DNA of 64,000 bases from an uncultured Actinomycetota bacterium (GTDB lineage Bacteria; Actinomycetota; Actinomycetes; S36-B12): assembly GCA_963749905.1 (NCBI GenBank), contig CAVVOF010000003.1, positions 980,235 through 1,044,234 of the forward strand. Direction: 5' to 3'. Within the stretch, counting starts at the first letter, position 1, and each line of letters starts with the position of its first letter. A program made the translations under genes and the position numbers. Of the stretch, positions 15-26,321 are shown piece by piece. A model generated the notes under the pieces. That model did no database searches. It was not told where the DNA came from and was given only the letters and a program-made list of their open reading frames with translations.

Positions 15-881
15 CTACGTCCGTCCGGCCAGCCGGCCGAGGTACTCGCCGTACCCGCTCTTCATCAGCGGGGCGGCCAGTGCTGCCAGATCCTCTGACG
101 TGATCCAGCCGTTGCGCCAGGCGATCTCCTCGACGCATCCGACCTTGGTCCCCGTCCGGTCCTCCATCACGCGGACGAACTCGCCGGCATCCTGCAGGGA
201 TCGGAACGTTCCCGTGTCGAGCCACGCGGTACCGCGCTCGAGGACCGTGACCGTCAGGGTGCCAGCCCGCAGGTAGTGGTCGTTGACCGACGTGATCTCG
301 AGCTCTCCCCTGGCGCTCGGCTTGATCGACTTGGCGACGTCCACGACCGTTTCGTCGTAGAAGTACAGACCGGGGATCGCGAAGTTGCTCCGGGGATCGG
401 CGGGCTTCTCCTCGACCGACAGGACCATCCCGCTCTCGTCGAACTCGACGACGCCGTACTCGCGCGGATTGGCGACCTCGTAGGCGAACACGTGGGCGCC
501 CACCTGGTTCGTCAGCTCGCCCAGGTGGCGCCCGAGACGAGGCCCGTAGAACAGGTTGTCGCCGAGGATGAGTGCCGCCTGGTCGCCGGCGAGGAAGTCC
601 TCCGCGATGAGGAACGCCTGAGCGAGACCCTCGGGCTTCGGCTGCACGGCGTAGCGGATCGACATTCCCCAGGGGGAACCATCGCCGAGCAGGCGGGAGA
701 AGGACTCCGAGTCCTCGGGAGTGGTGATGATCAGGACGTCACGAAGCCCGGCGGCCATGAGGGTGGCCAGCGGGTAGTGGATCATCGGCTTGTCGTAGAC
801 GGGCAGCAGTTGCTTGCTCACGCCCTTGGTTATCGGCCACAGCCGACTGCCGGTGCCGCCGGCCAGGATGATCCCCTTCAT
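15..881 (-). CDS. rfbA: Glucose-1-phosphate thymidylyltransferase (RmlA/RfbA)
   Basis: Motifs MKGIILAGGTGSRLWPITKGVSKQLLPVYDKPMIHYPL, QPKPEGLAQAF, SARGELEIT and WLDTGT; intact. ATG at 881 with TAGCGT -10 box 7 nt upstream. Confidence 0.97.
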   Translation of the reverse strand: MKGIILAGGTGSRLWPITKGVSKQLLPVYDKPMIHYPLATLMAAGLRDVLIITTPEDSESFSRLLGDGSPWGMSIRYAVQPKPEGLAQAFLIAEDFLAGDQAALILGDNLFYGPRLGRHLGELTNQVGAHVFAYEVANPREYGVVEFDESGMVLSVEEKPADPRSNFAIPGLYFYDETVVDVAKSIKPSARGELEITSVNDHYLRAGTLTVTVLERGTAWLDTGTFRSLQDAGEFVRVMEDRTGTKVGCVEEIAWRNGWITSEDLAALAAPLMKSGYGEYLGRLAGRT

Positions 882-2824: not shown

Positions 2825-3798
2825 GTGCGCGCCCTCGTCACCGGAGCAGCCGGCCAGGACGGCACGATCCTGTACCACCATGCTGTCCCGTGGGGGTGCA
2901 GCGGTCGTCGGGGTCGTCAAGCCCGGGACGGACACGACGCAGCTGCTGCGTTACGCGCCCAGCGCGGAGGTCGTCGAGTGCGACCTCTCTGACGTTGACG
3001 GACTGCGTGAGGTCGTGCGCCAGGCGGACCCGGACGAGGTCTACAACCTCGGTGGGTTCACGGCTCCCGGCGACTCCTGGGACCATCAGGACGAGGTCCG
3101 CCGCATCAACGTGGACGCGGTCGCCGGCCTCCTCGACGCTGCTGCCCACCTGAGCGGCGCCCGGCTCTTCCAGGCATCGTCCGCCTCGATCTTCGAGGGA
3201 GTCGATCGCTCGCCCCAGACGGAGCGGAGCGAACGGGCGCCGCGCACCCCCTACGCCGTCTCGAAGTCCGACGCGATGGATCTGGTGAACTCGGCGCGCG
3301 ATCGTGGCCAGTTCGCGGTCGCAGGAATCCTGTACAACCACGAGTCCCCGCTCCGGGGCGAGAACTTCGTCACCCGCCGCATCACGGTCGCGGTTGCCCG
3401 AATCGCTGCGGGCCTGCAGGACGTCGTGGAGCTGGGTGACCTCGACACGGCACGCGACTGGGGATGGGCTCCGGACTACGTCCGGGCCATGCAGCTGATG
3501 GTGCGTGCTGAGGTGCCGCACGACTACGTGCTGGCCACCGGCATCTCGCACCGACTGTCCTTCTTCCTTGGGAAAGCCTTTGCCGCCGCCGGGATCGCAG
3601 GACTGGCGCCCGCACGTGATCAGCACGAGCGATCGATCACGGCCCGTCGACACGAACATCCTCGTCGGCGACAGTCGGGCGGCCTACCTGGAGCTGGGCT
3701 GGAGGCACACCGTCGACTTCGACTCGATGGCCGGGATCATGGTCCGGCACGACATGGATCTGCTCGCCGATCCGGATGCGCTCTGGGAGATCCCGTGA
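2825..3798 (+). CDS. Gmd-like SDR paralog, possible GDP-4-keto-6-deoxymannose reductase (frameshifts near 2875 and 3600)
   Basis: MRALVTGAAGQDG, VYNLGG, QASSASIF, PRTPYAVSK, LYNHESPLRGENFVTRRIT, GDLDTARDWGWAPDYV. Confidence 0.85.
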
Positions 3799-6700
3799 CG
3801 GGAAGGAAGGTGTCCTACGCGCAGAACGCGGAGGACGTCCGTGTCTGGCGGGCCTTCCGGCATCTCGATCAGACGAAGTCTCACCTACGTGGACGTGGGT
3901 GCGAACGAGCCGCGGCACCTGTCGATAACCGCGAGCCTGTATGACCTGGGTTGGCGCGGACTGCTGGTCGAGGCCGACCCCGATCTCGCCGAGCAGCTGC
4001 GCATCCACCGCCCAGGCGACACGGTCGTCCAGATGGCGGCGGCATCCGGTCCGGGCGAGCTCGTCTTCCACCGAGTCCCAGGGACCGGCCTCGGCACCCT
4101 CGACGCGGCCGAGGCCGAGGCGGCCGGCGCACGCGGGTTCGACGTCGAGCAGGTGGTGGTGCCCACCGACTCCATCGACGCGATCATGGCACGCAACGGC
4201 GTGCGCGATGTTCACTTCATGTCGGTGGACGTCGAGGGCGCGGAATCCGTTGTGCTGCAAGGACTCTCACTCGAGTCACTCAGGCCGTGGGTGCTCTGCG
4301 TCGAGGCGGTCCTCCCGGGCACGACCACGCCGAGCCACGAGGAGTGGGAGCCACGTCTGCTCGATCGCGGGTACCGCTTCGTCGCCTTCGACGGTGTGAA
4401 CCGCTGGTATGTGGCAGAGGAGCACGCCGACCTCGCGGACGCGGTCGCGATCCCGTTCAACGCGGTGGATGCCGGAGCACACGGCTGGGTGGTGGCGGAT
4501 GAGGTGGTGGTCCGCGCCCGAGCCGATCGCGCCGCGGTGCGTCGGGCGTGGCAGCGGGAGCTGATCCTCAACGACATCCGTGGCGAGGTGCCGAAGGAGG
4601 AGTACGAGAAGCAGATCCACGAGCTGAGGTCCGCGCTGATCCAGGTGGAGGGATCGCGCACGTGGCGGTATGCCCGCAAGGTCGGCCGCGTGGGCAGGGG
4701 TGTCATCCATCGCGGACGAATGGCGCTGCAGCATCTCCCCGGTCCTGCACAGCGTGCCTTGGTGCGACGTCGGCACCTGCGGCACGTGACGGTCAACATG
4801 GGGCACCTGACCCATCCGGACCTGATGGCGGCTCCGCCGGTCGACGCCCTCGACTGGATCACCCCCGAGGGACTCCCCGCGGCGCCGGCTGCCGGTCTCG
4901 ACCTCCGCAGCTTCTCGGAGGAGGACGCTGCCGCAGTCCGAGCCTGGCTCGAGGATCCCCACGACAGCGATTCGATGCTCGAACGGCGCATCGACAACCA
5001 CGGCGACGAACTCGGCCGCGCCCGGGCCGCACTGCGGTTGCGACTGGCGCTCGCCGATCTGGCCGACAACGCGCCGTGGGCCGGGGGGAGCCTCGTGCTG
5101 GTCGATGCACGCGCGTTGCAGAGCGCCGCTTTCGGCACTCGGGGCATCGGCAGGTTCGCGCGGTCCGCGCTCCTTGCGGTCCGCGAGGCGGTGGGGGATG
5201 ACCGGGTCGTGCTGCTCGTCGACCGCGGCCTGGAGCAGCTGCCGGAGGACCTGGCCGGCAGCTGTCGTCAGGTCACCCGTGTCGACGGAGCGGGAGCTGC
5301 CCGCATACGGGGTTCTCGTCGAGCCCTCCCCGATGACAGCCAGCGCCCGACCACTGGTGCCGCTGCTGCACAGCACTGCCCACAAGATCGCGATCGTGTT
5401 CGACTTCATCCCCCTGCACCATCCGACCGTCTACCTCGGCAACGTCGCGGCGCGGGCTGAGTACGCGGCTGCCCTCGATGCCCTCAAGCTCTACGACGAG
5501 TTCGTGTGCATCTCCGACCTGGCCCGCAGCCGAGACGATCCGACTGCTGGGGCGCCCCGCGGACGGACCCGACGCCGTGAACACGACAGTCGCGTGGCCA
5601 CGAGACGTGCTGCCCGCCGCACCGTCAACTCCGGCGGGCCGCGCGGACGGCCCGATCGTGGTGATGACCGGCGACGACGCCCGCAAGAACACGTTCGGAG
5701 GCCTCGCCGGCGTGGCCGCCGCCACCGCTGGCGACGATGCCCGCGACGTCGTCGTCATCGGCATGGCCGGCACGGGTGACCGCGTGCACCACCTGTCCAT
5801 CGCCGCAGCGATGCGACCCGGAGAGGCGCGCACCGCTGAGCGACTCTCGGACGACGAGATGACCTCGCTTCTCGCGTCGGCGAGCGTCGTGGTCGTGCCG
5901 TCCTTCGACGAGGGGCTCTCCCTGCCGGTCATCGAGGCGTTGCGTGCGGGTGCTCCGGTCGTCGCGTCGGACATCCCGGCGCATCGCGAACTCATCGGTA
6001 CGGGATCCTTCCTGGCGGATCCACGAAGCCCTGCTTCTATCGCGAAGGCCGTGCGCGCCACCCGGGGTCGCTCCTCCGCGCGGGAGCGGCAGTTGGCCCG
6101 TCTGCGCCACCATCGGCACGAGGTACTCGAGGACGTACTCGCGGGCAGCGTTGCCGCGAGCCTGAAGGCCACCCGGGTCGACGTGCCGGCGCCGGTGGCC
6201 TTCTCGGGAGCCCGACCGCTGAGCGTGGGAGTGGGCGCTCCCTGGCCGCCGCAGCGCACAGGCATCGCCGACTTCACGGCGGCGACGATCACCGAACTGG
6301 CTCGGCTGTGCGACGTCACCGTCTACACGACGGCAGATGCGGACGTCGTCGGCAGCCAGTCCGACGGCGTGACCATCGGCCAGGGGCGTATCGACGACGT
6401 GATCGCGGGGGGACACGAGCACGACGTCTTCGTGTCGGTGATCGGCAACAGCCACTTCCACCTGCCGTTCATCGAGGTGCTGGAGTCCATCGACTCGGTC
6501 GCGCTTGCCCACGACACCCGCCTCGTCGAGCTGTACCTGGCCCTACGGGATCGCGGAGGCCTCGAGCAGGTCATGCTGCGTGGCAAGGGAAAGCGGACCC
6601 TCGATCCTCCGCTCGACGAGCAGATCGACGACATGCGGCTGCTGGAGAGCACCGCCCTGTGGGAGGTCGCACGGCGCGCCCAAGCGCTCGTCGGCCACAC

Positions 6701-7363
6701 GCCGACGGCCCGGGACTTCATCGCGAGGGACACCGGCGTCGACATGCGACTGCTCCCGTTCGCCAACTACCGGCATCCGGATGCGGACACGATCACCGCA
6801 CAGCTGCGTGCAGAGGCGCGCGACCGGCTGGGCTTCTCCAGCGATCGTGTCCACCTCGCCACCTTCGGCTTCATCGACACCCGGACGAAGCTCTCGGACG
6901 TGGTCGTCGAGGCCGCGGCGTGGCTGACCCAGTGGGGGCATCCGGTGAGCCTGCACCTGGTCGGCTCCGCGCCGGAGTCGCTCGCCGACGAGCTGCGCGA
7001 TCGGGCCGCGGAGGCCGGGATCGCCGAGTTCGAGATCACCGGGTTCGTCGGACGACGACCGGTTCAGGGACTACGTCCTCGGCATCGACCTCGGCGTCCA
7101 GCTGCGGGTCAGCCCGCTGCTCGGGGTGAGTGGCCCGCTGAGCGACATGGCCGCGTACGGCACGCCCGCCGGTCGCCAACCGCGGCATCTGCGCGGACGT
7201 CGACACCCCCGAGTTCATCGACCGGCTGCCGGACGATGTCAGCCCGGTGCTGGTGGCGGAGGCGATCGAGCGCCGGCTGGCGAACCCGTGGCCGGCTGAC
7301 GAGATCGAGGTGATGCGGCGCGACTACCTGGACCGCAAGTCCCCCGCCCGCTACGCGCGCTGA
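3795..7363 (+). CDS. Multidomain FkbM-family methyltransferase, helical linker and two GT4 glycosyltransferase modules (~1190 aa, several frameshifts)
   Basis: SYAQNAED...YVDVGANEP...VDVEGAE...FDGVNRWYV (FkbM) runs without a stop into VLVDARALQ...RGIGRF. Then VFDFIPL, PSFDEGLSLPVIEA, a second module PWPPQRTGIADF, HFHLPF, and GIDLGVQLR. Confidence 0.8.
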
Positions 7364-7421
7364 GCTGCACGCCCTCCTGTGGACATCGCCACGGGGGTGA
7401 GGGCGCAGTGACCCGCCACCC

Positions 7422-7491
7422 CTTCGTTGAGTGCGGAGTTGTTGACGTCGCAGCACCGTCCAAGGCCGCAACAACCCCGCACTCAACGAAG
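7422..7491. repeat. Intergenic inverted repeat with 23-bp arms and a 24-nt spacer (REP-like hairpin)
   Basis: CTTCGTTGAGTGCGGAGTTGTTG (7422-7444) and CAACAACCCCGCACTCAACGAAG (7469-7491) are complementary at 22 of 23 positions; no U-tract follows. Confidence 0.85.
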
Positions 7492-7513
7492 TGGGACGGG
7501 GGGTGACGGCCTG

Positions 7514-9597: not shown

Positions 9598-9950
9598 TCG
9601 CCAACGTCCTCGGCGCCATCGCGTCGATCATCGTCTTCGTCTTCGTGTTCTGGCTCATGCGTCGGGGCGTGCTCCGCGAGAAGTACGCCGTGCTCTGGCT
9701 GCTGTTCAGCGGCTTCGCGCTGTTCTTCTCGGTCGTCCCGGGCGCCCTGCAGTGGGTCAGCGACGCCCTCGGCGTCGAGACGCCGTCGAACCTGCTCTTC
9801 TTCGTCACCATCGTCCTGCTGATCCTGGTGTCGATCCAGGTCAGCTACGAGCTCAGCCGGCACGAGGCTCGCATCCGCAGGCTGGCGGAGGAGATCGCGC
9901 TGCTGGACCGACAGGTGAAGGACCTGAAGGAGCAGCGTGACGGTGAGTGA
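9594..9950 (+). CDS. DUF2304 family small membrane protein
   Basis: LREKYAVLWL, three TM segments, and a C-terminal coiled coil (EARIRRLAEEIALL); coupled to the upstream GT2. Confidence 0.85.
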   Translation: MIANVLGAIASIIVFVFVFWLMRRGVLREKYAVLWLLFSGFALFFSVVPGALQWVSDALGVETPSNLLFFVTIVLLILVSIQVSYELSRHEARIRRLAEEIALLDRQVKDLKEQRDGE

Positions 9951-10864
9951 GCCGGTGCTGGTGATGGCCTTCAACCGGCCGGACCACCTGGCCGTGCTCC
10001 TCCGGCGCCTGCGCGAGGTGCAGCCGGAGCGGCTCTACGTGGCGATCGACGGGGCTCGTACTGGTCGCGAGGGCGAACAGGAGCGGGTGCAGCAATGCCG
10101 CGACCTGGTGGCAACCGTCGACTGGCCCTGCGACGTGCACACGCTGTTCCAGGACTCGAATCTCGGTTGCGGCCTCGGGGTGAGCACCGCCATCTCCTGG
10201 TTCTTCGCCAACGAGGAGCGGGGCATCATCCTCGAGGACGACATCATCCCCGACCCTTCCTTCTTCCCCTACTGCGCGGAGTTGCTCGAGCGCTACGAGG
10301 ACGAATGAGCGGGTGTTCGCCATCACCGGCTGCAACTTCGTGCCCCCCGAGCACCAGTCGCGGCCCGGCGCTGCCGTACCGGTTCAGCCAGGTGCCGCAC
10401 ATCTGGGGCTGGGCGACGTGGCGGCGATCGTGGCGCCAGCACCAGCTCGACATCGCCGACTGGCGCGGGCACGCTCCCTCTGCACCGGCTCTGGAGCCGC
10501 GTCGGGCTACTCCGTCGCCGAGCACCGTCTACTGGACCAGCACCTTCGAGCTGCTCGCGCGCAAGGAAGTCGATACGTGGGACGGCCAGCTGGTGCTCGC
10601 AGCCATGGCTCGGGACCGCTGACGGCGACCAGCAACGTCAACCTCATCGAGAACATCGGCTTCGGCGACGTCGGCCACGCACACCGTCGAGGATCGAGAC
10701 GACCTGCAGCCGATCGGCGCAATGCGGTTCCCCCTCGCGGACGTCCCGGTCGAGCACGACGTGAAGGCGGACGCGTGGACGCGTCAGCACCACTTCCGGG
10801 CCACCTGGCGAGGCATGCTCGGGCAGGCCGATAGATTCCTGAGGCAGCGACGAGGGAGAGCATC

Positions 10865-10868
<4 letters not shown>
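9937..10868 (+). CDS. Nucleotide-diphospho-sugar transferase (GT-A fold, HlpA-like; frameshifts)
   Basis: [65 protein letters not shown]. Confidence 0.8.
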
Positions 10869-11815
<947 letters not shown>

Positions 11816-11824
11816 TCGCGCTCC

Positions 11825-13614
11825 ATGCTCATCGTGACGGGCACGGTGCTGGTGCTCCTGACGTGGGCGGTGATGCTCGGGGCGGCGATGGGGACCGGGC
11901 TGTTGACCGCGATGGCGATCCACCGGCGGGCGCTGGCAACCGGGGGTTCCGAGGTTCGCCCTGTGGTGGGGACTTGCGCTGCTCGCGGTCCTGATCACCA
12001 GTGTCAGCCTCGTCCTGCCCCTGCGAGATGCGGGCGCTGCCGGCGCTGTCATCGGGCATCTGCGTCGTGATGGGGGGCTTCGGCTTGTGGGCCGCCTGGC
12101 GGGCCAGCGGCTCCCAGCCTCGGTCAGGTCGGTCATCTGCGCACGGGTCCCGTCGCGCGTGGCGATGGTTGCTGGCGGGTCGGCGTCGCGGCCGCCGTGG
12201 CCTACCTCGCTCTCGCGGCCCTCGGCCCGGTGACGAACTACGACTCGGGTCTCTACCACCTCGGGGCGATCGCCTACGCCGGCGACTACCGGGCGATCCC
12301 CGGCCTCGCCAACCTGTACTTCCCGTTCGGCTACGCGAACGCTGAGTTCCCGGTGGCGGCCTTCCTCGGCAACGGACCCTGGGACGGCGTCGGGTACCGG
12401 CTGCTCAACGGGCACTGGTCACCGCCATGGCCCTCGACCTCTCGCTCCGAGCTCGCTCGCCGACGTCTGGGTCCCGGATTCTTCGTCCTTGCGGTGGGCG
12501 CGGCGGCCGTCGCTCGTCCCGATGGTGGCCCTGTCGGACTACTGGGTCACCAGCCCGACCTCCGATTCCGCGGTACTCGTCTTGAGCGTCGTCTCGGCCG
12601 CGTACCTGGCGGACGCCGCCGCCTCGGCCCGCGCGGCCGCTCCCAGCGGATCGGTCGCGATCGTCACGGCGATGATGACGGTCCTGCTGAGACCGACGAT
12701 GGTGGTGTACGCCGTCGTGGTGGTGATTGTCGTGGTGGTGCTCGTGGTCCGGGCGCGCAGAGCGGGTCGGGGTGCTGGATCGACCGCTGCTCTGCTGCTG
12801 TCAGGGGGCCTGGCCGCGGCGGCTGCGATCGTGATGACGGCCCGGGACATCGTCCTCAGCGGCTGGCTTCAGTACCCGCTGTCGCTCGTCTCCTTCGATG
12901 CTCCCGTGGCGTGCCGCGGATCCGACTCAGTACCGCGTCCCGACGCTCGGTGCTGCACGCGATCCCGAGGACCTGTGGGCGGCCGCAGAGGGCTGGGGAT
13001 GGGTGGCGGGGTGGCTGCGCAGACTCCCCACGCAGTGGGAGACCTACGAATTCGCCGCCCTGGCTGTGGCCGCCCTGGCGTTGATCATTCTCGTCGCACG
13101 TTCAGGGGCGACAATGCGGGTGCGCTCGCTCATGGTGGTGATGGCACCAAGCGTGCTGGCGGTCGTGGTGTGGTGGGTTGCCACCCCACCGTCGTTCCGG
13201 TTCATCTGGGGGCCGTTGTTCTGCGTGGCGGCCGTTCCGGCAGGGTGGTCGCTGTGGCGACTCTCGCTGGGCGGCCCAGCTCATGGCAAGGGGACGTGCT
13301 TGGATTCCGTGGCTCACTGCGGTGGCTGTGGCCTTGCCGGTCACGGCTGTGGTCTTGGTCAGCGGGGTCGCCAGGTTCGATCCGGCGGCCCTCACAGAGG
13401 ACCGGACGTGGGACCTCGGAGTCCGCATCCCGTACTCGGTTGCCCCCGTGGTCGACGTGCCTGTTGTGGAGCAGCACCCTGTCCAGCGGCCTGACGGTGC
13501 TGTTGCCGACGCAAGTCGGATCAGTGCTGGCTCAACTACCCGTTGTGCACAGCACAGGTGGCCGACTCCGTTTCTCTGCGCGGCGATGGCATTCAGGACG
13601 GGTTCCTCCCCTGA
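11825..13614 (+). CDS. Polytopic membrane protein, LIC_10190-like / GT-C-like (many frameshifts)
   Basis: Many hydrophobic segments across frames; [14 protein letters not shown]...[13 protein letters not shown]; SPTSD; LSGWLQYP. Confidence 0.6.
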
Positions 13615-14578
13615 GCGAGGCGCCGTCGTGGGTAGGTCATCAGCGCTCGACCGAGGGCGGCGGCCCGACGGGTGCGCTGGAGCCCGTCGGATGCAGAGAG
13701 AGGTGTGGAGACTTCGACCACGTCAGCCGCGACGGCCGCCTCCTCACCGAAGGAGGATGCACGGGAGTAGACGATGCCCCGGGACCGAGAGAGAACGCGC
13801 CAGTCGACCATCGCGTCCACTCCTGCGCCGGCGGTCGAGCGGTCGAGGTTGGGCTCAGGCGCCGACCAGCCGGACAGTCCTAGGAGTTCGAGCTCCGCTA
13901 GCCACTGGACTCTGCCCTCTGGTGTGTCCGCTGCCACGAACACGGAGCTGATCCCGGTGCGCGTCGGCCAGTTGGCGGATGGCGTCGCGGATCGCGCGAG
14001 GCCGTGGGGCGGACACCGACCGGTCCGTCTGCCGCACGTGCAGGCCGATGAAGTCCTGACGATCGCCAACCGCGATGTCCGTGCTGAACGTGACCGGCGT
14101 CGCTCCAGGGAAGTCGCCGGTAGAAGTGCCGACGCTGCGCCGCGAACCCGTTGTCTGGATGAGAGGTGGAATCGTCCGCCCGCGATGATCAGCAGTGTCG
14201 TGGGACGACACGGGTGATCGAGAGCTTGGGTGAAGCTCGGACATGAACGCCTGCTCACCACGATCGTGCCCGGCGAGCACCACGAGGCGACGTGACTCGT
14301 CGACGGACAGATAGCGCGGCAATTCGTCGTGCATGCAGCCGAGCACATCACGCAGGGCCGAGTCGTCGATCAGCGAAGCACCGGGGCGCCCTGGGATGAA
14401 GAGGTCTGCAAAGGCCGCCGGAGCGACGTCCTCGGGCTCCCAATACACCGTCAGAGGGACGTCCAGCTCAGCGGCCAGGATGGCGCTCGACGCCCAGGCC
14501 TGGAGTCGGTTCACGTATCCGTTGCGCGGGACGACGATCACGCGCTCCGGCGAGTGGGTGCCACGGTTCGTCAGCCAT
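13593..14578 (-). CDS. O-fucosyltransferase-like (GT-B, GT11/23/68-type) glycosyltransferase (frameshifts)
   Basis: PRNGYVNRLQAWAS, IGLHVRQTD, VFVAAD, VDWRVLSRSRGIVYSRASSFGEEAA. ATG at 14578 has TAGGAT 7 nt upstream. Confidence 0.6.
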
Positions 14579-14630
14579 CGCGGCGATCCTATGGCTGAGG
14601 CGCTGCCCCGTGCGCCCCTAGAATCACCGG

Positions 14631-15719
14631 GTGCGGGTGGCCATAGACGAGCAGATCTTCGCCATCCAGCGCTATGGCGGGATCTCTCGAATGTTCGCAG
14701 AGCTCGCTCGGCAGTTCGTGCTGAACGAAGTCGCGGACGTGGATGTCCTGCCGTTCAATGCTCCGGTAGTCAACCGGTACCTGCTCGACCACCCTGAGAT
14801 CGGCGGACCGCTGGGCGCCCGCGCGGCGCGCAACGAGTGGACGGCGCTGGCCCGGTACCTGACCCGCCCTGGCACCCACCCATCGTGCGACATCGTGCAC
14901 AACTCGTTCTACCTGCCGCACGGGCTAGCGCCTGCACGAGGGGCGAAACGAGTCGTGACGGTTCACGACATGATCCCGGAACGACTCCCCCATACGCGTC
15001 GACGACTGGATTGGCTCACTCTCAAGCGTCGCTATGTGGACCACGCAGATCACATCATCTGCGTGTCTGAGTCAACGCAACGTGATCTGGAGGACGTCTA
15101 CGGACCGGTGAGCGCCCCCGTGACGGTGGTCAGCCACGGCGTGGATGAGCGATTCCATCCGGGCGCTCCTGTCCTCGACTTCCTGCCTGCACGGTATGTG
15201 CTGTTCGTGGGGAACCGCGGCGACTACAAGGACGCTCAGGTGCTGTTCGAGGCCTTCGCTCTGTTGGCGAAGGATCACGACGACCTGCACCTGCTGTGTG
15301 TGGGCGGCGCCGGGCTCGATCCACAGGAGATCGAGTGGCTCAAGGCGCGCGGCATCCGGGAACGGGTGTCGCAGCGGTACCTGTCGGACGCCGATATGGC
15401 CTCTGCGTACGCCCATGCCGAGGTCTTCGTCTTTCCGTCACGTTTCGAGGGCTTCGGGTTGCCGGCACTGGAGGCGATGGCCAGCGGGACTCCCGTGATC
15501 CTGGCGGATGCGACCTCCCTGCCCGAGGTGGGGGGAGACGCCGCCTTGTACTTCCCGCCGGGTGACGTCCGGCAGCTTCGCGTGGAAATCGACCGCCTAC
15601 TGGCGGATGCCGATCTTCGGCGGCGCCTGGTAGGTCTGGGGTTGGCACGAGCGGCGACGTTCACGTGGAGGACCGCAGCCGAGCGGACTGCGGCGGTGTA
15701 CCGGGAGACCCTCCAGTAG
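14631..15719 (+). CDS. GT4 glycosyltransferase
   Basis: IDEQIFAIQRYGGISR, VVTVHDMIPE, YVLFVGNRGDYK, FVFPSRFEGFGLPALEAMASG; intact. Confidence 0.92.
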   Translation: MRVAIDEQIFAIQRYGGISRMFAELARQFVLNEVADVDVLPFNAPVVNRYLLDHPEIGGPLGARAARNEWTALARYLTRPGTHPSCDIVHNSFYLPHGLAPARGAKRVVTVHDMIPERLPHTRRRLDWLTLKRRYVDHADHIICVSESTQRDLEDVYGPVSAPVTVVSHGVDERFHPGAPVLDFLPARYVLFVGNRGDYKDAQVLFEAFALLAKDHDDLHLLCVGGAGLDPQEIEWLKARGIRERVSQRYLSDADMASAYAHAEVFVFPSRFEGFGLPALEAMASGTPVILADATSLPEVGGDAALYFPPGDVRQLRVEIDRLLADADLRRRLVGLGLARAATFTWRTAAERTAAVYRETLQ

Positions 15720-15720
15720 C

Positions 15721-17268
15721 GTGGAACCCGCCATGGAGTCCTCCACAAACCCGCATGACGAGCGAGTCGAACGCTCCTCGTTGGCCGACTACCTGAGGAC
15801 GAGCCTCGGTCCACTCGAGAGTGCCCACGTGCTGCTCACGGGCTTCAATCACTGGGCCTTCGCGATGGCAGCGGTGGCGGAGACCGCGCTCTGCCTGAAG
15901 GAGATGGGCTCCGCGGTCAGCCTGGCGCTGTGGTCGGACCGCACGCCGATGCGGGACGAGGGTTGGGAGGCCGGCCGCCGCGTGAGCCGGGTCCTCGCCG
16001 ACTCGCTCCCCGGACGCGAACCTCGAACTTGGTCTGATCAAGTCGGGGATATCCCCGGCCGCGTTCGCGGACCCGCCCATCCGTGGGTGGCGGCCGGTCG
16101 AGCCGATCGTGATTCCCCGGCGCTTGAACCGAAGCGAGATCCGGGCGCTCACCTATCGGGGCACTCCGATGGGCAAGGCCATCCTCCAAGTGCATCCAGA
16201 CCGGAATACGCCCATCACCGATGACCACTACTGGCCTCGTCGCTGGATCACCAACGCCGCACGCTCGTATGCGTTCGTGCTCGACCAGACGCTCGCCCTG
16301 GTCAAGCAGAGGGGCATCACCGCGGCACTGGCCTTCAACGGGAGGTTCCTGCATGACCGGGCGGTAGCCGAGGCCGCAGCCCTCGCCGGGATCCCGCTGC
16401 TGTCGACGGACCTTGGCGGCACCGACGCCGACTTCGAGTTGACTGTCGAGCCGACTCACGATTGGGCCGCATTCCAGCGCCGCATCCTCGAGCTTGTACG
16501 CGGCTTGGGATCCGAGCGATCGGGATGCCGTTGGCAGCGGTTGGTTCCTCGACCGGGTGGAGCACCGCGATCCCCAGAACTCGCTGTTCGTCGAGGCGCA
16601 GCGCCGAGGTGAGATGCCCGAGATCCCTCAGGATCGGAAGGTCGTGGTCGTTCTTCAGCTCGTCCGGCGACGAGATGGCCGAACTGGACTTCGACTGGAA
16701 GCAGTACTTCGGTGGTCAGGGCGCTGCCCTGAAGGCTCTTGCGGAGGCCTGCCGCGAGCGCCCAGACACGTTCTTGGTGGTCCGATCACACCCGCACAAG
16801 CGCATCAAGCCCGCGCGCGACGTCGAGGACTGGATGGCGGACGTCGCGGCGGCTGCCCCGGACATGCACCTCGACCCGTTCTCCCCGATCGACTCCTACA
16901 CACTCATGCGCAGGGCGGATGTCGTCGTCACCTACGGGTCAACGACGGGCATCGAGGCTGCCTTCGCTCGCAAGCCGGTGATCGTCATGGGGCCGTCGGC
17001 GTACGGCGAACTGGGCTGCGTGACGGTCGTGCAATCCGAGGAGCAGCTGAAGGCGGCCTTGGATGATCCGGAACCGGGGGACTGGTCTGGAGCGGTGGCT
17101 TTCGGATTGATGATGCGCAAGCGCGGGTTCCGGGTGCGGCACATCGAGAGGCTCGAGGGCGGTGGCTACCGCGTCGGAGGCGTCACCCTAGGCGAGGTCC
17201 GTCCCGCGGCCCGCCATGCCAGTCACCTGCTGGACAGGACGCGGCGGGCCTATCTGAGGAGGAAATGA
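15721..17268 (+). CDS. KpsS/KpsC-like capsule-synthesis family protein, candidate ulosonic-acid transferase (frameshifts)
   Basis: FNGRF, FFSSSGDE, LVVRSHPH, IDSYTLMRRADVVVTYGSTTGIEAA..KPVIV. Confidence 0.7.
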
Positions 17269-17940
17269 GCACGATGGTGGACGTCCGGACGACAGCGCGT
17301 CGAGTTCCCTTCAGCACCGAGATATACGAGTACGTGACGACACGTTCCAGGATGCGCCGGTCCAGGAGCGTGGCCCGAAGAATCCTCGAGTCAGGTCGGG
17401 AGATCAAACTCGACCTCGGTGGAGGGTATGCACCGGGACGCAACGGCTGGGTCAACGTCGACGTGTCGAACGAGGCGGACTTGTTCTGGGACCTTCGCTA
17501 CGGAATCCCCTTCCCGGACGGCACCGTCGACCGGCTGTACTCGAGCCACCTGTTCGAGCACCTGACGTACGAGCAGGGCCGGGCCCTGCTCGATGAGTGC
17601 ATGCGGGTCCTGAAGCCCGGCGGGTCGGTCTCGATCGTCGTGCCGAACGCCCGGATGTTCATCGAGGCCTACCTGTCCGGACGGCCGCTGCCTGCCGAGT
17701 ACCTCGGATGGGAGCCGGCGAACAATCACACGACCGCCATTGACGCGGTCAACTATGTCGCCTACATGGCTGGCGAGCACAAGTACATGTTCGACCAGGA
17801 GAACCTCCTGCACGTCCTCACTGCACGAGGCTTCGAACGGGTCGAGCGGCGGGACTTCGATCCCGGAGACGGATCTGCAGGAGCGGGACTTCGAGAGCAT
17901 CTACGCGATCGGCTACAAGCCGGACCGCGTCAGCCGATGA
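17265..17940 (+). CDS. Class I SAM-dependent methyltransferase (frameshift near the end)
   Basis: KLDLGGGY, WVNVD, DLRYGIPFPDGTVD, SHLFEHL, RVLKPGG, HKYMFD. Confidence 0.85.
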
Positions 17941-19023
17941 GGAGTTGCCAGGTCGTGACGGCCTGGTCCACGACGTTGGCATAGACGACGTCGGATCCCC
18001 ATAGGGTCACCACCGGTGCGAGCCAGACGAGGGTTTCGACAAGTCGAAGCTCGTTCGTCTGCGCGTCCCTCCGGTGCAAGTAGGCCACCGTCAGCAGGAG
18101 CAGGGCAGGTGCCATCACCAGAACGAACACGCGGGGGCGGTCACCGCTGAGCACCGTGGCGGCGACGCCGACCACGAAGGCGCCCGCGAGAACCAGTCGG
18201 GCACGGGGCAGTGGCTGAGAAAGCCAGAAGGCGACGACGATCGCCCACGACCCGGCGAACAGTGACCACAGCAGCATCGGCCCGGTGTTGATGGCCACCT
18301 TCGTCCAGTCGGCGACATAGGGGCCGAGCCAGGCAGTTCGACCGGACGTCGCCGAGCCCGCCGTGATCAGGATGAGCAGCAGCAGCACCTTGCCGGCGAG
18401 GATGCCGATCACACCCCAGCCGGGGTTGGTGTCGCGCAGCCGCCCGGGGAGTTCTGGACGCACGCCGATCCAGACCAGGACGAGGGCCGCCATCCCGAGC
18501 AGGCCGTGCTCGAGGTGCTGAAAGCCGAGGAGTGCCCCGGAGACGGCGAGCAACGCCCTGGACCCGGACAGCCACGAGAACAGGACGACCGCCCAGGCCA
18601 GCATCGTCCAGGGGTCATAGAAGCCGAGCCAGGTGGCCAGCACGCCGATCACCGGGGACAGGACAGCCAGGCGGGCAGCCCGCCAGCGCTGCGTTCTCGG
18701 TGCATTGAGCCACGCCCACGCTCCCCAGCAGCCGGCAACGGCTGCCGATTGCGGCCACGCTCAGCCAGAGGTATGCAGATGGGGATCCGGCGCCGACGAG
18801 CCTGGCGAGCAGTAGCCCGAGTGGGCTGTCGGTGTAGAAGGCCTCGAACTCTCCTGGCAACCGCTGGGGCCAGGCCTGTGCGGCCGCGAGGAGTGCGTCC
18901 AGTGAGGGCGTGACGGTCGGGCCGGCACGCAGGATCGACCAGCCGAGGGCGAGCAACGACGCTGAGGACAGCGATCAGCGAGACCGAGCGGCGGGCACTC
19001 CTAGGCTCGGTCGGGAGGCTCAC
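17930..19023 (-). CDS. Polytopic membrane protein of unknown function (frameshifts)
   Basis: More than 8 hydrophobic segments, including YTDSPLG, FYDPWT, FQHLEHG and GDRPRVF. GTG at 19023 has TAAAGT 7 nt upstream. Confidence 0.55.
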
Positions 19024-20827: not shown

Positions 20828-22152
20828 ATGGGTGGAAGAGGACGGTGCGCCCCGTCGAGGGCGGCTTCATGCACGACCTGGCGCGGGACTGTTCCCCATC
20901 ACGCGCAGCATCACCGGCGACGGCGTGCGCGCCAGACGCTGGCGATCCTGGGCGGGACCTGCCCGGCCTCATGATCCACGAGGTGCCCAGCGGCACGCCG
21001 GCCCTCGACTGGACCGTCCCCGACGAGTGGAACATCCGCGCGCGCCTACCTCGAGGGCCCGGCCGGCCGTCGCATCTCGACCTCGCCGACAGCAACCTGC
21101 ACGTGGTCGGCTACTCCGTGCCGGTCGACGCGGGCACTGACCCTCGGAGGAGCTGCAGCCCCACCTGCACTGCGATCGCCGAGCTACCCGACGCGATCCC
21201 GTACGTCACGAGCTACTACAACCCGCACGTGGGGCTTCTGCCTGACCGAGCAGCGTGCGGCAGTCGCTGGAGCCGGGCGAGTACCGCGCCGTCATCGACA
21301 GCACGCTGGAACCCGGCAGCCTGACCTACGCCGACCTGGTCATCCCCGGCGACACCGACCGAGGAGGTGTTCGTCACCACCTACGTCTGCCACCCGTCGC
21401 TGGCGCAACAACGAGCTGTCGGGTCCGGTGGTGGCCACCGCCCTGGCCCGGTGGGTGCTGTCGCTGCCCCGGCGGCGTTACACCTACCGATTCGTGTTCG
21501 CGCCCGAGACCATCGGCGCGCTCACCTACACCAGCCGGCACCTGTGAGCACCTGCGCGAGCACGTGATCGCCGGCTTCAACCTGACGTGCATCGGCGACG
21601 ACGGGCGACTACTCGTACCTGGCTTCCCGGCGGGCGACCTCGAGTTGGATCGCATCGGCACGTCGTGCTGTCGAACTCGGACGCCCGCAGTCGAGTACTC
21701 CTACCTCGACCGCGGAAGCGACGAGCGGCAGTACGGCGCCCCCGGGATCGATCTGCCGATGATCTCGCTCATGCGCACCAAGTACGGGGAGTATCCCGAG
21801 TACCACACGTCGCTCGACGACCTGACGTTCGTCACCCCGACGGGCCTGCAGGGTGGGCTCGACCTCGTCCGCGATTGCATCGAGGCGGTGGAGGTTGAAC
21901 GAGTACTACGAGGCGACGGTGCTGGGCGAGCCACAGTTCGGCCGTCGCGGGCTGTACCACCTCGTGCGCCCGCGGGTGGTGGAGGACGTGGTGTACCTGC
22001 GCAGGAACGTCCTGGCATACGCCGACGGTGAGCACTCGGTGGTCGACATGGCGGTGTTGTTCGGGCTGCCCATCGGGGATGTCGCGGCTGTGGTGGACGA
22101 GTTGACGTCACACGGACTGCTGAGACGAGTCGATAGGGACAGGACGGTGTGA
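20828..22152 (+). CDS. DUF4910 domain protein (M28 peptidase-like with C-terminal HTH; frameshifts)
   Basis: [104 protein letters not shown] before ATG at 20828. Confidence 0.88.
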
Positions 22153-24614: not shown

Positions 24615-25660
24615 GCGAGCAGGTCCCACGCCAAGGGGGTGCCGCGCTCGACGTCGCGCGCCAGAGTTCGGCCGATGACGTCGCCCAGGTGCTTGTGGGG
24701 GCAGGCCATAGCCGGGACGGATGGCCCGGACATCGTCGGCCCCGAGCAGGTTCACCAGCTCGCTTGTCGCGGACTATGTATAGGGATCGTCGGTAGATGA
24801 GGGAGGGAACCTCCTCGGGCGCCGGTCCGAAGGACACGATGCCTCGTGCCCGCCAGGCCCGGCCCGCCTCCTCGACCATGGCGCGCAGTTCGTCGGGCTC
24901 GAGTGAGAACGCGCTGTCGACCGCACCATCGGCTCGACGCAGCGTGACGTGCTTCTCGATGACAGTCGCGCCCAGTGCCACGCTGGCCACCGGCACCCCG
25001 ATGCCGAGGGTGTGATCGGAGAGGCCGACCTCGCAGCCGAACGCCTCGGCCAGCACGGGGATGGCCGCCAGGTTGCTCGCCTCGGGCGGAGCGGGGTAGG
25101 TACTGGTGCACTTGAGGAGGACGAGCTCGGTGCAGCCAGCGGCGCGTGCTGTCGACACGGCCTCGTCGATCTCGGCGAGGGTGGCCATGCCGGTGGAGAT
25201 GATGACCGGCTTCCCGGTGCGTGCGACTTTCTCGATCAGCGGGAGGTCGGTGTTCTCGAACGAGGCGACCTTGTAGGCCGGGACGTTCAGGGACTCGAGG
25301 AAGTCCACGGCGGACGCGTCGAAGGGGGTGCTGAACGCCGTCAGACCGCGGGCACGCGCCCTGTCGAATATCGCACCGTGCCACTCCCAAGGCGTGTGCG
25401 CCTGTTCGTAGAGGGCATAGAGGTGGGACCCGAACCAGGGGCTCTCAGGCTCGCGGATCACGAATCCGGGCACCGTCGCAGTCCAGAGTCATCGTGTCTG
25501 CCGTGTACGTCTGCAGTTTGATGGCGTCGGCTCCTGCATCCGCCGCAGCGTCGACGATGGCTAGAGCCGTGTCGAGCGAGCCGCCATGGTTGCCCGATAG
25601 CTCAGCGATGACATAGGGGGCGTGCTCCGGGCCGATGTCGCGTCCGTTGATGGTGATCAT
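24611..25660 (-). CDS. pseI: Pseudaminic acid synthase (frameshifts near 25470 and 24760)
   Basis: [84 protein letters not shown]. Confidence 0.93.
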
Positions 25661-25669
25661 GGCACCCGG

Positions 25670-26321
25670 CTAGAGCCGGCCCCAGACAATGACGTCGCGG
25701 TTGTCGATGCGCAGGTCGTGCTGGATGTTCTCGTGCGATTCGAAGAGCACTTGGCACTCGTTCAGGGTGCCGAGTCGGTCCTCGATGAGCTCGCAGCTCG
25801 TCGGGGTCGTAGAAGGTCATGGTTGCCCCCTCCTCCGCGGTCTGCCAGATGTTGATCCGGAACGTGTCCCTCTCGATCGGGTCGCCCTTGCCGTAGCGCC
25901 AGTCGTCACGGGTGCGGAACTTGAAGTAGACGTGTGCGCCGGGTGCGAGCGTCTCCCGCGCCTGGGACAGCAGCTCCTCAAGGTAGTGGCGTTCGAAGTA
26001 GAACAGGGAGCCGTTGCCCACTAGGGCGTCGAACGGTCCGTCCAGCGGTGGCAGGCCTTCGCGCAGGTCTCGCTCGACGAAGGCCGATGTGCCGGGCGGC
26101 TCGAGGTCCCAGTTGGCGCGTGCGTTCTCGAGGGCGGCGGCGTCGATGTCCACGCCGGTGACCCGCCAGCCGTACTCGGCGAACAGGCGGGCATTGTTGC
26201 CGTTTCCGCAGCCCAACTCGAGCAGGGAGCCGGGGGTCTGGTCGAGGCCGAACTTGAAGAAGAACTTGGTCACGTAGACATCGGGGAACAGCATCCCGCG
26301 CCACTCGGGGGCACGCTTCAC
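25670..26321 (-). CDS. Class I SAM-dependent methyltransferase, tandem copy B (frameshift near 25815)
   Basis: LLELGCGNGNNARLF, VTGVD; TAGCAT -10 box 7 nt before GTG at 26321. Confidence 0.85.

Follow-up and report, generated by a model that had tools for sequence, protein, structure and literature searches.

The locus examined here raises the question of whether a gene that is broken across three reading frames encodes, in the organism itself, a single enzyme that both builds and caps a surface sugar chain. It lies in a 64,000-nucleotide stretch of DNA from an uncultured Actinomycetota bacterium (GTDB lineage Actinomycetes; S36-B12; assembly GCA_963749905.1, contig CAVVOF010000003.1, positions 980,235 to 1,044,234), hereafter the window, to which unprefixed positions refer. 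An earlier note, made from the sequence alone, had proposed that positions 3795-7363 encode a fusion of ~1190 residues in which a methyltransferase, a coil and two GT4-family glycosyltransferase (GT) modules serve as terminator, ruler and polymerase in one chain. We find that window 3795-7400 (+) encodes one protein of 1199 residues once six extra bases are skipped, and we consider it probable that this is a cytoplasmic enzyme which builds and methyl-caps a surface sugar chain, its gene being intact in the organism. The proposed order of parts (methyltransferase, helices, GT4, second GT module) proved correct.

A reading frame interrupted by six extra bases

The region has a G+C content of 0.66-0.72 and the coding signal of its + strand changes frame every few hundred bases. 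As the earlier note had described, an open reading frame (ORF) free of stops at 3841-5460 contains the FkbM methyltransferase domain and the helical string EEYEKQIHELRSALIQVEGSRTWRYA, and GT module 1 begins in it (LVLVDARALQSAAFGTRGIGRFAR) with its first strand and helix. The methyltransferase, the helices and the beginning of the first glycosyltransferase module are joined in one uninterrupted frame, with no stop between them. A frame-3 ORF at 5478-7313 holds PWPPQRTGIADF and a GT1-family C-terminal domain. When an intact 1199-residue ortholog from the same genus was searched against the window using tblastn, positions 3804-7357 were covered in six collinear pieces of 69-93% identity each, none of which has in-frame stops. 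These pieces, all on the + strand, span 3804-3869 (frame 3), 3874-5283 (frame 1), 5285-5527 (frame 2), 5565-7049 (frame 3), 7042-7170 (frame 1) and 7166-7357 (frame 2). The repaired 1199-residue read-through and the homolog P0004 are identical at 943 of 1197 positions (78.8%).

The N-terminus, VTGRKVSYAQNAEDVRVWRAFRHLDQ, is encoded at 3795-3872 (+, frame 3) with 91% identity to the intact ortholog (tblastn). Its start codon, the GTG at 3795, shares bases with the stop codon (GTGA) of the preceding gene, an Rmd-like reductase, and the same overlap is present in orthologs; the two genes are translationally coupled. The true stop lies at 7398-7400 (+), where frame 3 reads AELHALLWTSPRG and then terminates, and the C-termini of orthologs are alike (for example AAELHDLLQRVARGDA). 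The stop at 7361-7363, previously taken as the end of the gene, is an artefact of the sixth frameshift. About 110 nucleotides of apparently non-coding DNA (7401-7513) separate the fusion stop from the ATG of the next GT4 gene (7514); in relatives the fusion gene and this GT4 gene overlap by one base. Because the local error rate is high, the gap may also conceal an indel.

The fused form is widespread. At this locus 12 genomes of the same genus have open frames of ~1200-1370 residues, and six of these ORFs, when read out, gave 1199-1233 residues. At least 120 protein clusters (90% identity) of 1163-1257 residues were found, and all but one of the 120 listed carry PF05050 together with GT1-family domains. 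Where cluster names are given they read "FkbM family methyltransferase"; the sources are uncultured Actinomycetes, and several of the listed clusters come from Candidatus Nanopelagicales metagenome-assembled genomes (MAGs). Homologs are therefore not always split genes: most are single ORFs of ~1200 residues.

The six frameshifts fall at ~3873, 5284, 5528-5531, 7050, 7171 and 7358, and the frame runs 3, 1, 2, 3, 1, 2, 3 along the gene. Since all six shifts are in the same direction, each represents one extra base in the window. Comparison was made with short-read contigs from public runs (X2 and X4), whose identity to the window is 97-98%. One such near-identical contig (run X2) is one base shorter at 3875, and contigs of runs X2 and X4 are one base shorter at 7049 and at 7169/7171. 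The extra base is absent from the contigs of near-identical organisms at three of the six sites in the fusion gene. Additionally, between 5515 and 5649, an interval that spans the 5528 site, the contig of a relative has 132 letters against the window's 133. The genes immediately upstream behave similarly: contigs of runs X1-X3 are without one base at 2208/2210 (in Gmd) and at 2873 and 3598 (in the Rmd-like gene).

The whole genome was then decoded with a codon-usage Viterbi model, same-strand frame switches being counted as '+1' or '-1'. The first 28 kb of the window (0-28 kb) contain 23 '+1' and 6 '-1' switches, whereas 76 kb of flanks contain 13 '+1' and 21 '-1'. In most contigs of the genome '-1' switches outnumber '+1' switches, '-1' being the type given by ATGA gene overlaps. 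The rpoB gene is undamaged, forming a single frame of 1176 residues, and the Wzm, Wzt, double GT2 and GT4 genes just upstream of the window each occupy one frame when compared with their orthologs.

Two explanations for the breaks were rejected. Error throughout the assembly is ruled out by the intact rpoB and by the confinement of '+1' switches to a few hot zones, and programmed frameshifting by the presence of six sites, none conserved, with one open frame in all relatives. A further explanation is that the fusion gene and much of the 28-kb glycan island are decaying through real mutations in this strain. Surface-glycan loci are frequently lost or varied, six frameshifts lie within 3.6 kb, and the damage extends to Gmd, the Rmd-like gene, a GT2, a GT4 and other genes. 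Natural decay, however, gives deletions mixed with insertions and relaxed substitution, whereas all six events here are of one inserted base and 23 of the 29 switches in the zone are '+1'. Furthermore, the six breaks are accompanied by no deletions, nonsense codons or rearrangements, and protein conservation is undiminished in every piece, including a stretch of only 43 residues between two shifts that retains 93% identity to the ortholog. The borders of the zone are sharp and lie beside error-free genes of the same cluster. We therefore regard a genuine pseudogene as decidedly unlikely. A single type of mutation, sharp borders, the lack of decay signs and the retained conservation all favour local consensus error, and on these alignments the frameshifts are very probably errors of this kind, with the organism's own gene intact. 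Such errors typically arise where a long-read metagenome assembly crosses an island with poor coverage or mixed strains. We infer that the zone is a glycan island that was poorly polished and probably varies among strains.

The affected zone, window 1-28000 (C3:980235-1008234), has sharp edges, and nearly all glycan genes within it are split. Breaks were located in a GT2 gene (~1357), Gmd (~2210), the Rmd-like gene (~2873 and 3597) and a GT4 gene (~8065), and further split genes lie at 9935, 11540, 12512, 15716-17858, 21545-21893 and 25475-25793. Hot zones of '+1' switches also occur elsewhere in the genome, for example at C6 150-200 kb, which has 46. Several of the sister genomes are long-read MAGs.

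Domains of the fusion protein

An AlphaFold2 model of the homolog P0004, built on a 66-sequence alignment, had a mean predicted local distance difference test score (pLDDT) of 88.1 and a predicted template modelling score of 0.72. The S-adenosylmethionine-dependent methyltransferase domain of FkbM type occupies 3883-4440 (+, frame 1), and in the model the methyltransferase domain covers residues 1-230. The frame-1 ORF of the window matched PF05050 (Methyltransf_21/FkbM) with 74.1 bits (cut-off 22.7), and the ortholog matched TIGR01444 with 63.3 bits (cut-off 37.7). Both methyltransferase motifs, YVDVGANEP and SVDVEGAE, are intact in the window, and residues G35, A36, N37, D145, V146, E147, G148 and E150 are invariant in the 66 homologs. 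By profile and by motif, the domain is assigned to the FkbM family (PF05050/TIGR01444).

A helical linker of ~105 residues follows at 4495-4809 (+). In the model it consists of four helices of 29, 19, 24 and 23 residues (234-262, 267-285, 288-311 and 316-338), and the charged segment in which the earlier note had seen a possible ruler corresponds to the second of them, 19 residues long. The pLDDT over residues 240-310 is low (52-66). Segment 215-300, comprising helices 1 and 2 and the start of helix 3, is exactly 85 residues long in 66 of 66 homologs. Four short helices, modelled at low confidence and fixed in length, give no sign of a tunable coil, and the ruler was not upheld. The last two helices, 3 and 4, have a strongly basic sequence (RTWRYARKVGRVGRGVIHRGRMAL...) and are possible membrane binders. 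Rather than an adjustable ruler, the helices more likely form a tether, a means of oligomerisation or a basic element that binds the membrane. Between the linker and the first GT module lies a small domain (4813-5085, +; residues 340-430) that is modelled with a pLDDT of ~90 or more; it has no Pfam match and is also kept in homologs that do not carry the methyltransferase.

GT module 1 (5092-6167, +; model residues 433-790) is broken by the extra bases at 5284 and 5528-5531. It matched Glycos_transf_1 (PF00534) with 59.8 bits and Glyco_trans_1_4 (PF13692) with 69.3 bits. An R-K pair at 5682-5687 and an EX7E motif (EGLSLPVIE) at 5910-5936 are both invariant among the 66 homologs, E705 and E713 being among the invariant residues. 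A Foldseek search of the whole P0004 model against the PDB returned the retaining GT4 enzymes MshA, BshA, WaaG, PimA and ManT (7qsg) as top matches, the aligned module being unspecified. At the sequence level, the best PDB match of module 1 is 7qsg, a mannosyltransferase of methylmannose-polysaccharide synthesis (E = 1.8e-8). Profile, motif and fold agree that module 1 is a canonical retaining GT4.

The second module (PWPPQRTGIADF...; 6222-7391, +; model residues 809-1195) is broken at ~7050, 7171 and 7358. The earlier note had described a second GT4 module across frameshifts; the module is present and frameshifted, but by sequence it is not recognisable as GT4. It is modelled at high pLDDT as two Rossmann halves with the secondary structure of a GT-B fold. 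The fold is seen in the model alone, and against Glyco_trans_1_4 (PF13692), for which the cut-off is 27, the module reaches 24.5 bits. The module has an RTK at 6882-6890, and LRVSPLLGVSGPLSD stands where EX7E would be expected. Homology of the two modules was tried with hhalign and set aside as not significant (E = 0.22); the regions that hold the motifs are nonetheless brought into register.

These properties allow the explanation that only module 1 is catalytic, with module 2 a degenerate GT-B domain that acts as scaffold, binds acceptor or recruits partners, and with separate GT4 proteins of the cluster making other linkages. The absence of EX7E, the sub-threshold Pfam score and the poor alignment to module 1 are all in keeping with this, and the cluster does have two more GT4 proteins and several GT2s. 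Conversely, residues R1027, K1029 and D1114 of module 2 are invariant in the 66 homologs; R1027 and K1029 occupy the place that the diphosphate-binding R-K has in GT4 enzymes, and D1114 belongs to an invariant G-x-x-G...D block. Across the same homologs module 2 is as conserved as module 1, and it is retained in variants that have lost the methyltransferase. An inert second module thus appears quite unlikely, and module 2 is probably catalytic, as judged from these conserved positions.

The gene cluster, sugar supply and transporter

The earlier note had remarked that the Wzm/Wzt transporter typical of such systems is not in the window. This is correct for the window, but the pair is present just upstream (locus L027:10393-12413), at a distance of 5.8-7.8 kb from the start of the window, and its absence from the system is ruled out. 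Wzm (C3:972392-973189; ABC2_membrane, 92 bits) and Wzt (C3:973189-974412; ABC_tran) are both intact, and Wzt bears a C-terminal carbohydrate-binding module (CBM), Wzt_C, at 49.7 bits (cut-off 30.4). One cluster therefore holds Wzm and a Wzt with a C-terminal CBM, as in systems of the E. coli O9a/K. pneumoniae O12 type. The pair is followed, outside the window, by an intact double GT2 (an ORF of 653 residues) and a GT4 (665 residues), and a GT-C-like membrane protein is also among the cluster genes upstream of the window.

Within the window, the cluster genes before the fusion are RmlA, a GT2, Gmd and the Rmd-like reductase; a further GT4 and a polyprenyl-phosphate sugar synthase follow downstream of it. 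Gmd (1810-2812, +) is 90-92% identical to an intact ortholog by tblastn and scores 474 bits against TIGR01472 (cut-off 415). The Rmd-like gene (~2871-3798, +) is a Gmd paralog, 80% identical to its ortholog by tblastn and scoring 213 bits against TIGR01472; on sequence it is consistent with a GDP-4-keto-6-deoxymannose reductase. Both genes are frameshifted, each being spread over two or three frames. The link to a guanosine diphosphate (GDP)-activated sugar made in the earlier note is strengthened by this arrangement, in which a Gmd equivalog and a translationally coupled Gmd paralog stand directly upstream of the fusion.

The nucleotidyltransferase at window 27-881 (-) is not a ManC, as had been considered, but an RmlA equivalog: its ortholog scores 450 bits against TIGR01207, and the window copy is 93% identical to that ortholog. 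With RmlA as well as the Gmd and Rmd-like genes, the cluster draws on both deoxythymidine diphosphate (dTDP)- and GDP-activated sugars.

The arrangement is preserved in relatives. A genome with an ortholog of ~79% identity (L025) has a 23.6-kb cluster that begins with Wzm, Wzt with Wzt_C, a double GT2, a GT4, an unknown gene, RmlA and a GT2, and continues with Gmd, the Rmd-like gene, the fusion, a GT4, DUF2142, a second unknown gene, a polyprenyl-phosphate sugar synthase-like GT2 and DUF2304. The FkbM domain of the fusion is the sole methyltransferase in this 23.6-kb cluster. The same synteny, including Wzm and a Wzt_C-bearing Wzt, was found in other relatives.

A candidate polymerase and methyl-cap terminator

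In the mechanism we propose, the two GT modules would lengthen a chain carried on polyprenol, at the cytoplasmic face of the membrane, the likely donor being a GDP-6-deoxyhexose such as GDP-D-rhamnose, or possibly GDP-mannose. The tethered FkbM domain would O-methylate the non-reducing end, whereupon elongation would stop, and the Wzt_C module of the ATP-binding cassette transporter would recognise the capped end and export the chain. To our knowledge, an FkbM methyltransferase has not been seen before as a chain terminator. The combined role of polymerase and methyl-terminator is supported by the Wzm/Wzt pair with Wzt_C in the same cluster, and the idea of a capping terminator put forward in the earlier note has gained from it. 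In characterised pathways the CBM on Wzt reads the terminal cap, and only terminated chains are exported (PMC11231755).

Several known systems work in a comparable way. WsaE, which acts on the S-layer glycan of Geobacillus stearothermophilus NRS 2004/3a, has an N-terminal O-methyltransferase and two rhamnosyltransferase domains, is encoded in a Wzm/Wzt cluster and is reported to use dTDP-L-rhamnose as donor for a rhamnan whose 2-O-methyl cap has been proposed to end elongation (PMC2943079). By this description WsaE resembles the present fusion in being a single chain with an N-terminal methyltransferase and two GT domains, in a Gram-positive host and with a Wzm/Wzt cluster; it differs in its dTDP-L-rhamnose donor. 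Its methyltransferase and GT domains are, as far as is known, of families other than FkbM and GT4.

In K. pneumoniae, WbbB of serotype O12 carries its terminator, a coiled coil and two GT modules on one chain, and in ORF6 of serotype O7 a methyltransferase-kinase is joined to a coiled coil and a pair of GT2 modules (PMC11231755). Both share with the fusion an N-terminal terminator, a helical spacer and two C-terminal GT modules, and their products leave through Wzm/Wzt with a CBM that reads the terminal cap, as the Wzm/Wzt_C pair in the fusion's cluster might. [quoted passage not shown] So do the GT modules, which are GT2 or GT102/GT103 in those proteins and one canonical GT4 plus one divergent GT-B here, and the spacers, extended coiled coils with a ruler function shown or proposed in the former and a short, broken linker of fixed length in the latter.

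In E. coli O8/O9a the multi-GT4 polymerase WbdA is paired with a separate coiled-coil terminator, WbdD (PMC11231755). This pair (also in K. pneumoniae O5/O3) and the TET operon for the common polysaccharide antigen of Pseudomonas syringae combine a multi-GT4 polymerase, a GDP-sugar and a methyltransferase terminator; the donor sugar is mannose, or D-rhamnose in Pseudomonas, and the C-terminal domain of Wzt binds the cap (PMC3482155, PMC7820976). In contrast to the fused domain, WbdD is a protein in its own right. Its methyltransferase is of class I, to which O9a adds a kinase, and it also has a long coiled-coil ruler and, at the C-terminus, a membrane helix. The hosts of WbdA/WbdD are diderm and the product is a lipopolysaccharide O antigen, while the host of the fusion is an actinobacterium. 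In some isolates of P. syringae the genes of the D-rhamnan loci for the GT4-GT4 polymerase and the O-methyltransferase are themselves fused (PMC7820976).

An all-in-one enzyme is not in itself a novelty, since WbbB, O7 ORF6 and WsaE have already been characterised and the fused P. syringae genes noted (PMC11231755, PMC2943079, PMC7820976). Single-chain polymerase-terminators are established by these proteins, and the fusion adds no new category. What sets the present family apart is an FkbM domain with no kinase, a canonical GT4 with a divergent GT-B, a short fixed linker and an uncultured actinobacterial host.

The tethered methyltransferase could alternatively act during synthesis, methylating internal residues to give an O-methylated polymer with neither cap nor termination. 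A short tether of fixed length could hold it beside the GT sites for this purpose, the methyltransferase-less variants have two separate methyltransferases, and the best PDB sequence match of module 1 (E = 1.8e-8) is 7qsg, which is also among the Foldseek matches of the whole model. In the synthesis of mycobacterial methylmannose polysaccharide, a GT4 mannosyltransferase and methyltransferases alternate. That polysaccharide is cytoplasmic, however, and the Wzm/Wzt export setting here is unlike it. The cluster's Wzt also carries Wzt_C, which in characterised systems reads a terminal cap (PMC11231755), and WsaE, with the same domain order, caps its chain (PMC2943079). Internal methylation is on these grounds rather improbable, and terminal capping remains the reading that we prefer.

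A number of points weigh against terminal capping by a single intact enzyme. The roles of polymerase and cap are predictions from the genes. RmlA implies that dTDP-sugars are in use too, and the GDP-6-deoxyhexose named above is a candidate donor for the GT modules. Module 2, which has SPLLGVSGPLSD where EX7E would be expected and scores under the PF13692 cut-off, could be non-catalytic. The linker, low in model confidence, is neither long nor continuous enough to resemble the coiled coils of WbdD and WbbB. A phmmer search of the 1199-residue ortholog against all PDB chains (E <= 1) matched no WbdD or WbbB chain; it gave GT4-type matches only, plus one marginal and unrelated match at E 0.98. 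The frameshift at 5284 is supported by protein alignment alone. Finally, among the public read runs screened the best contained 14% of the window's sampled words, and assembly error is thus inferred. Judged by the phmmer search, the likeness to WbdD and WbbB is one of logic and not of descent.

Natural split forms of the system also exist. Among GTDB species genomes, ~32 loci are full-length and ~10 are without the first ~290-300 residues, and a minority form has the methyltransferase as a separate gene within the syntenic cluster. The methyltransferase-less variants, of 925-933 residues, begin at about residue 292-306 of the fusion. One such syntenic cluster encodes a 933-residue protein without methyltransferase together with stand-alone FkbM and Methyltransf_24 genes (L098, on the G021 chromosome: 10001-12802, 13928-14719 and 18017-18778); another locus of this kind is L023 (G010). 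Clusters of the split form also carry a hexapeptide acyltransferase and an Acyl_transf_3 gene. The stand-alone methyltransferases of the split clusters provide a Rosetta-stone argument for joint action of methyltransferase and polymerase. The split forms look as if the same machinery for the backbone were combined with another chemistry of decoration or capping.

Full-length homologs of ~50% identity also occur in two MAGs with non-actinobacterial labels, Rubricoccaceae and Rubrivirga (L054 and L066), reflecting either horizontal transfer or a binning error. Several freshwater MAGs with homologs (L076, L078 and L090) bear the label 'Bifidobacterium breve', apparently in error.

The analysis disposes of a false lead, in that the broken gene is most likely an assembly artefact, and the 28-kb zone needs re-polishing before any pseudogene calls are made in it. 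It also gives a large family, of at least 120 clusters, a working annotation: its members are candidates for polymerising a glycan and ending it with a methyl cap, in association with a Wzt-CBM exporter. The hosts are abundant uncultured actinobacteria of freshwater and soil. We tentatively suggest that monoderm Actinomycetes of the Nanopelagicales type in these habitats may make a 6-deoxyhexose cell-wall glycan that is terminated by a cap and exported by Wzm/Wzt-CBM, with a dedicated enzyme family for polymerisation and termination, the FkbM domain tethered by a short fixed spacer and chain length set by a hard-wired short distance or by kinetic competition and not by an adjustable coiled coil; the product might otherwise be a regularly O-methylated polymer. 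The naturally occurring fused and split forms, and the terminator on its short fixed tether, could be used to ask how far the control of chain length needs a long coiled-coil ruler.

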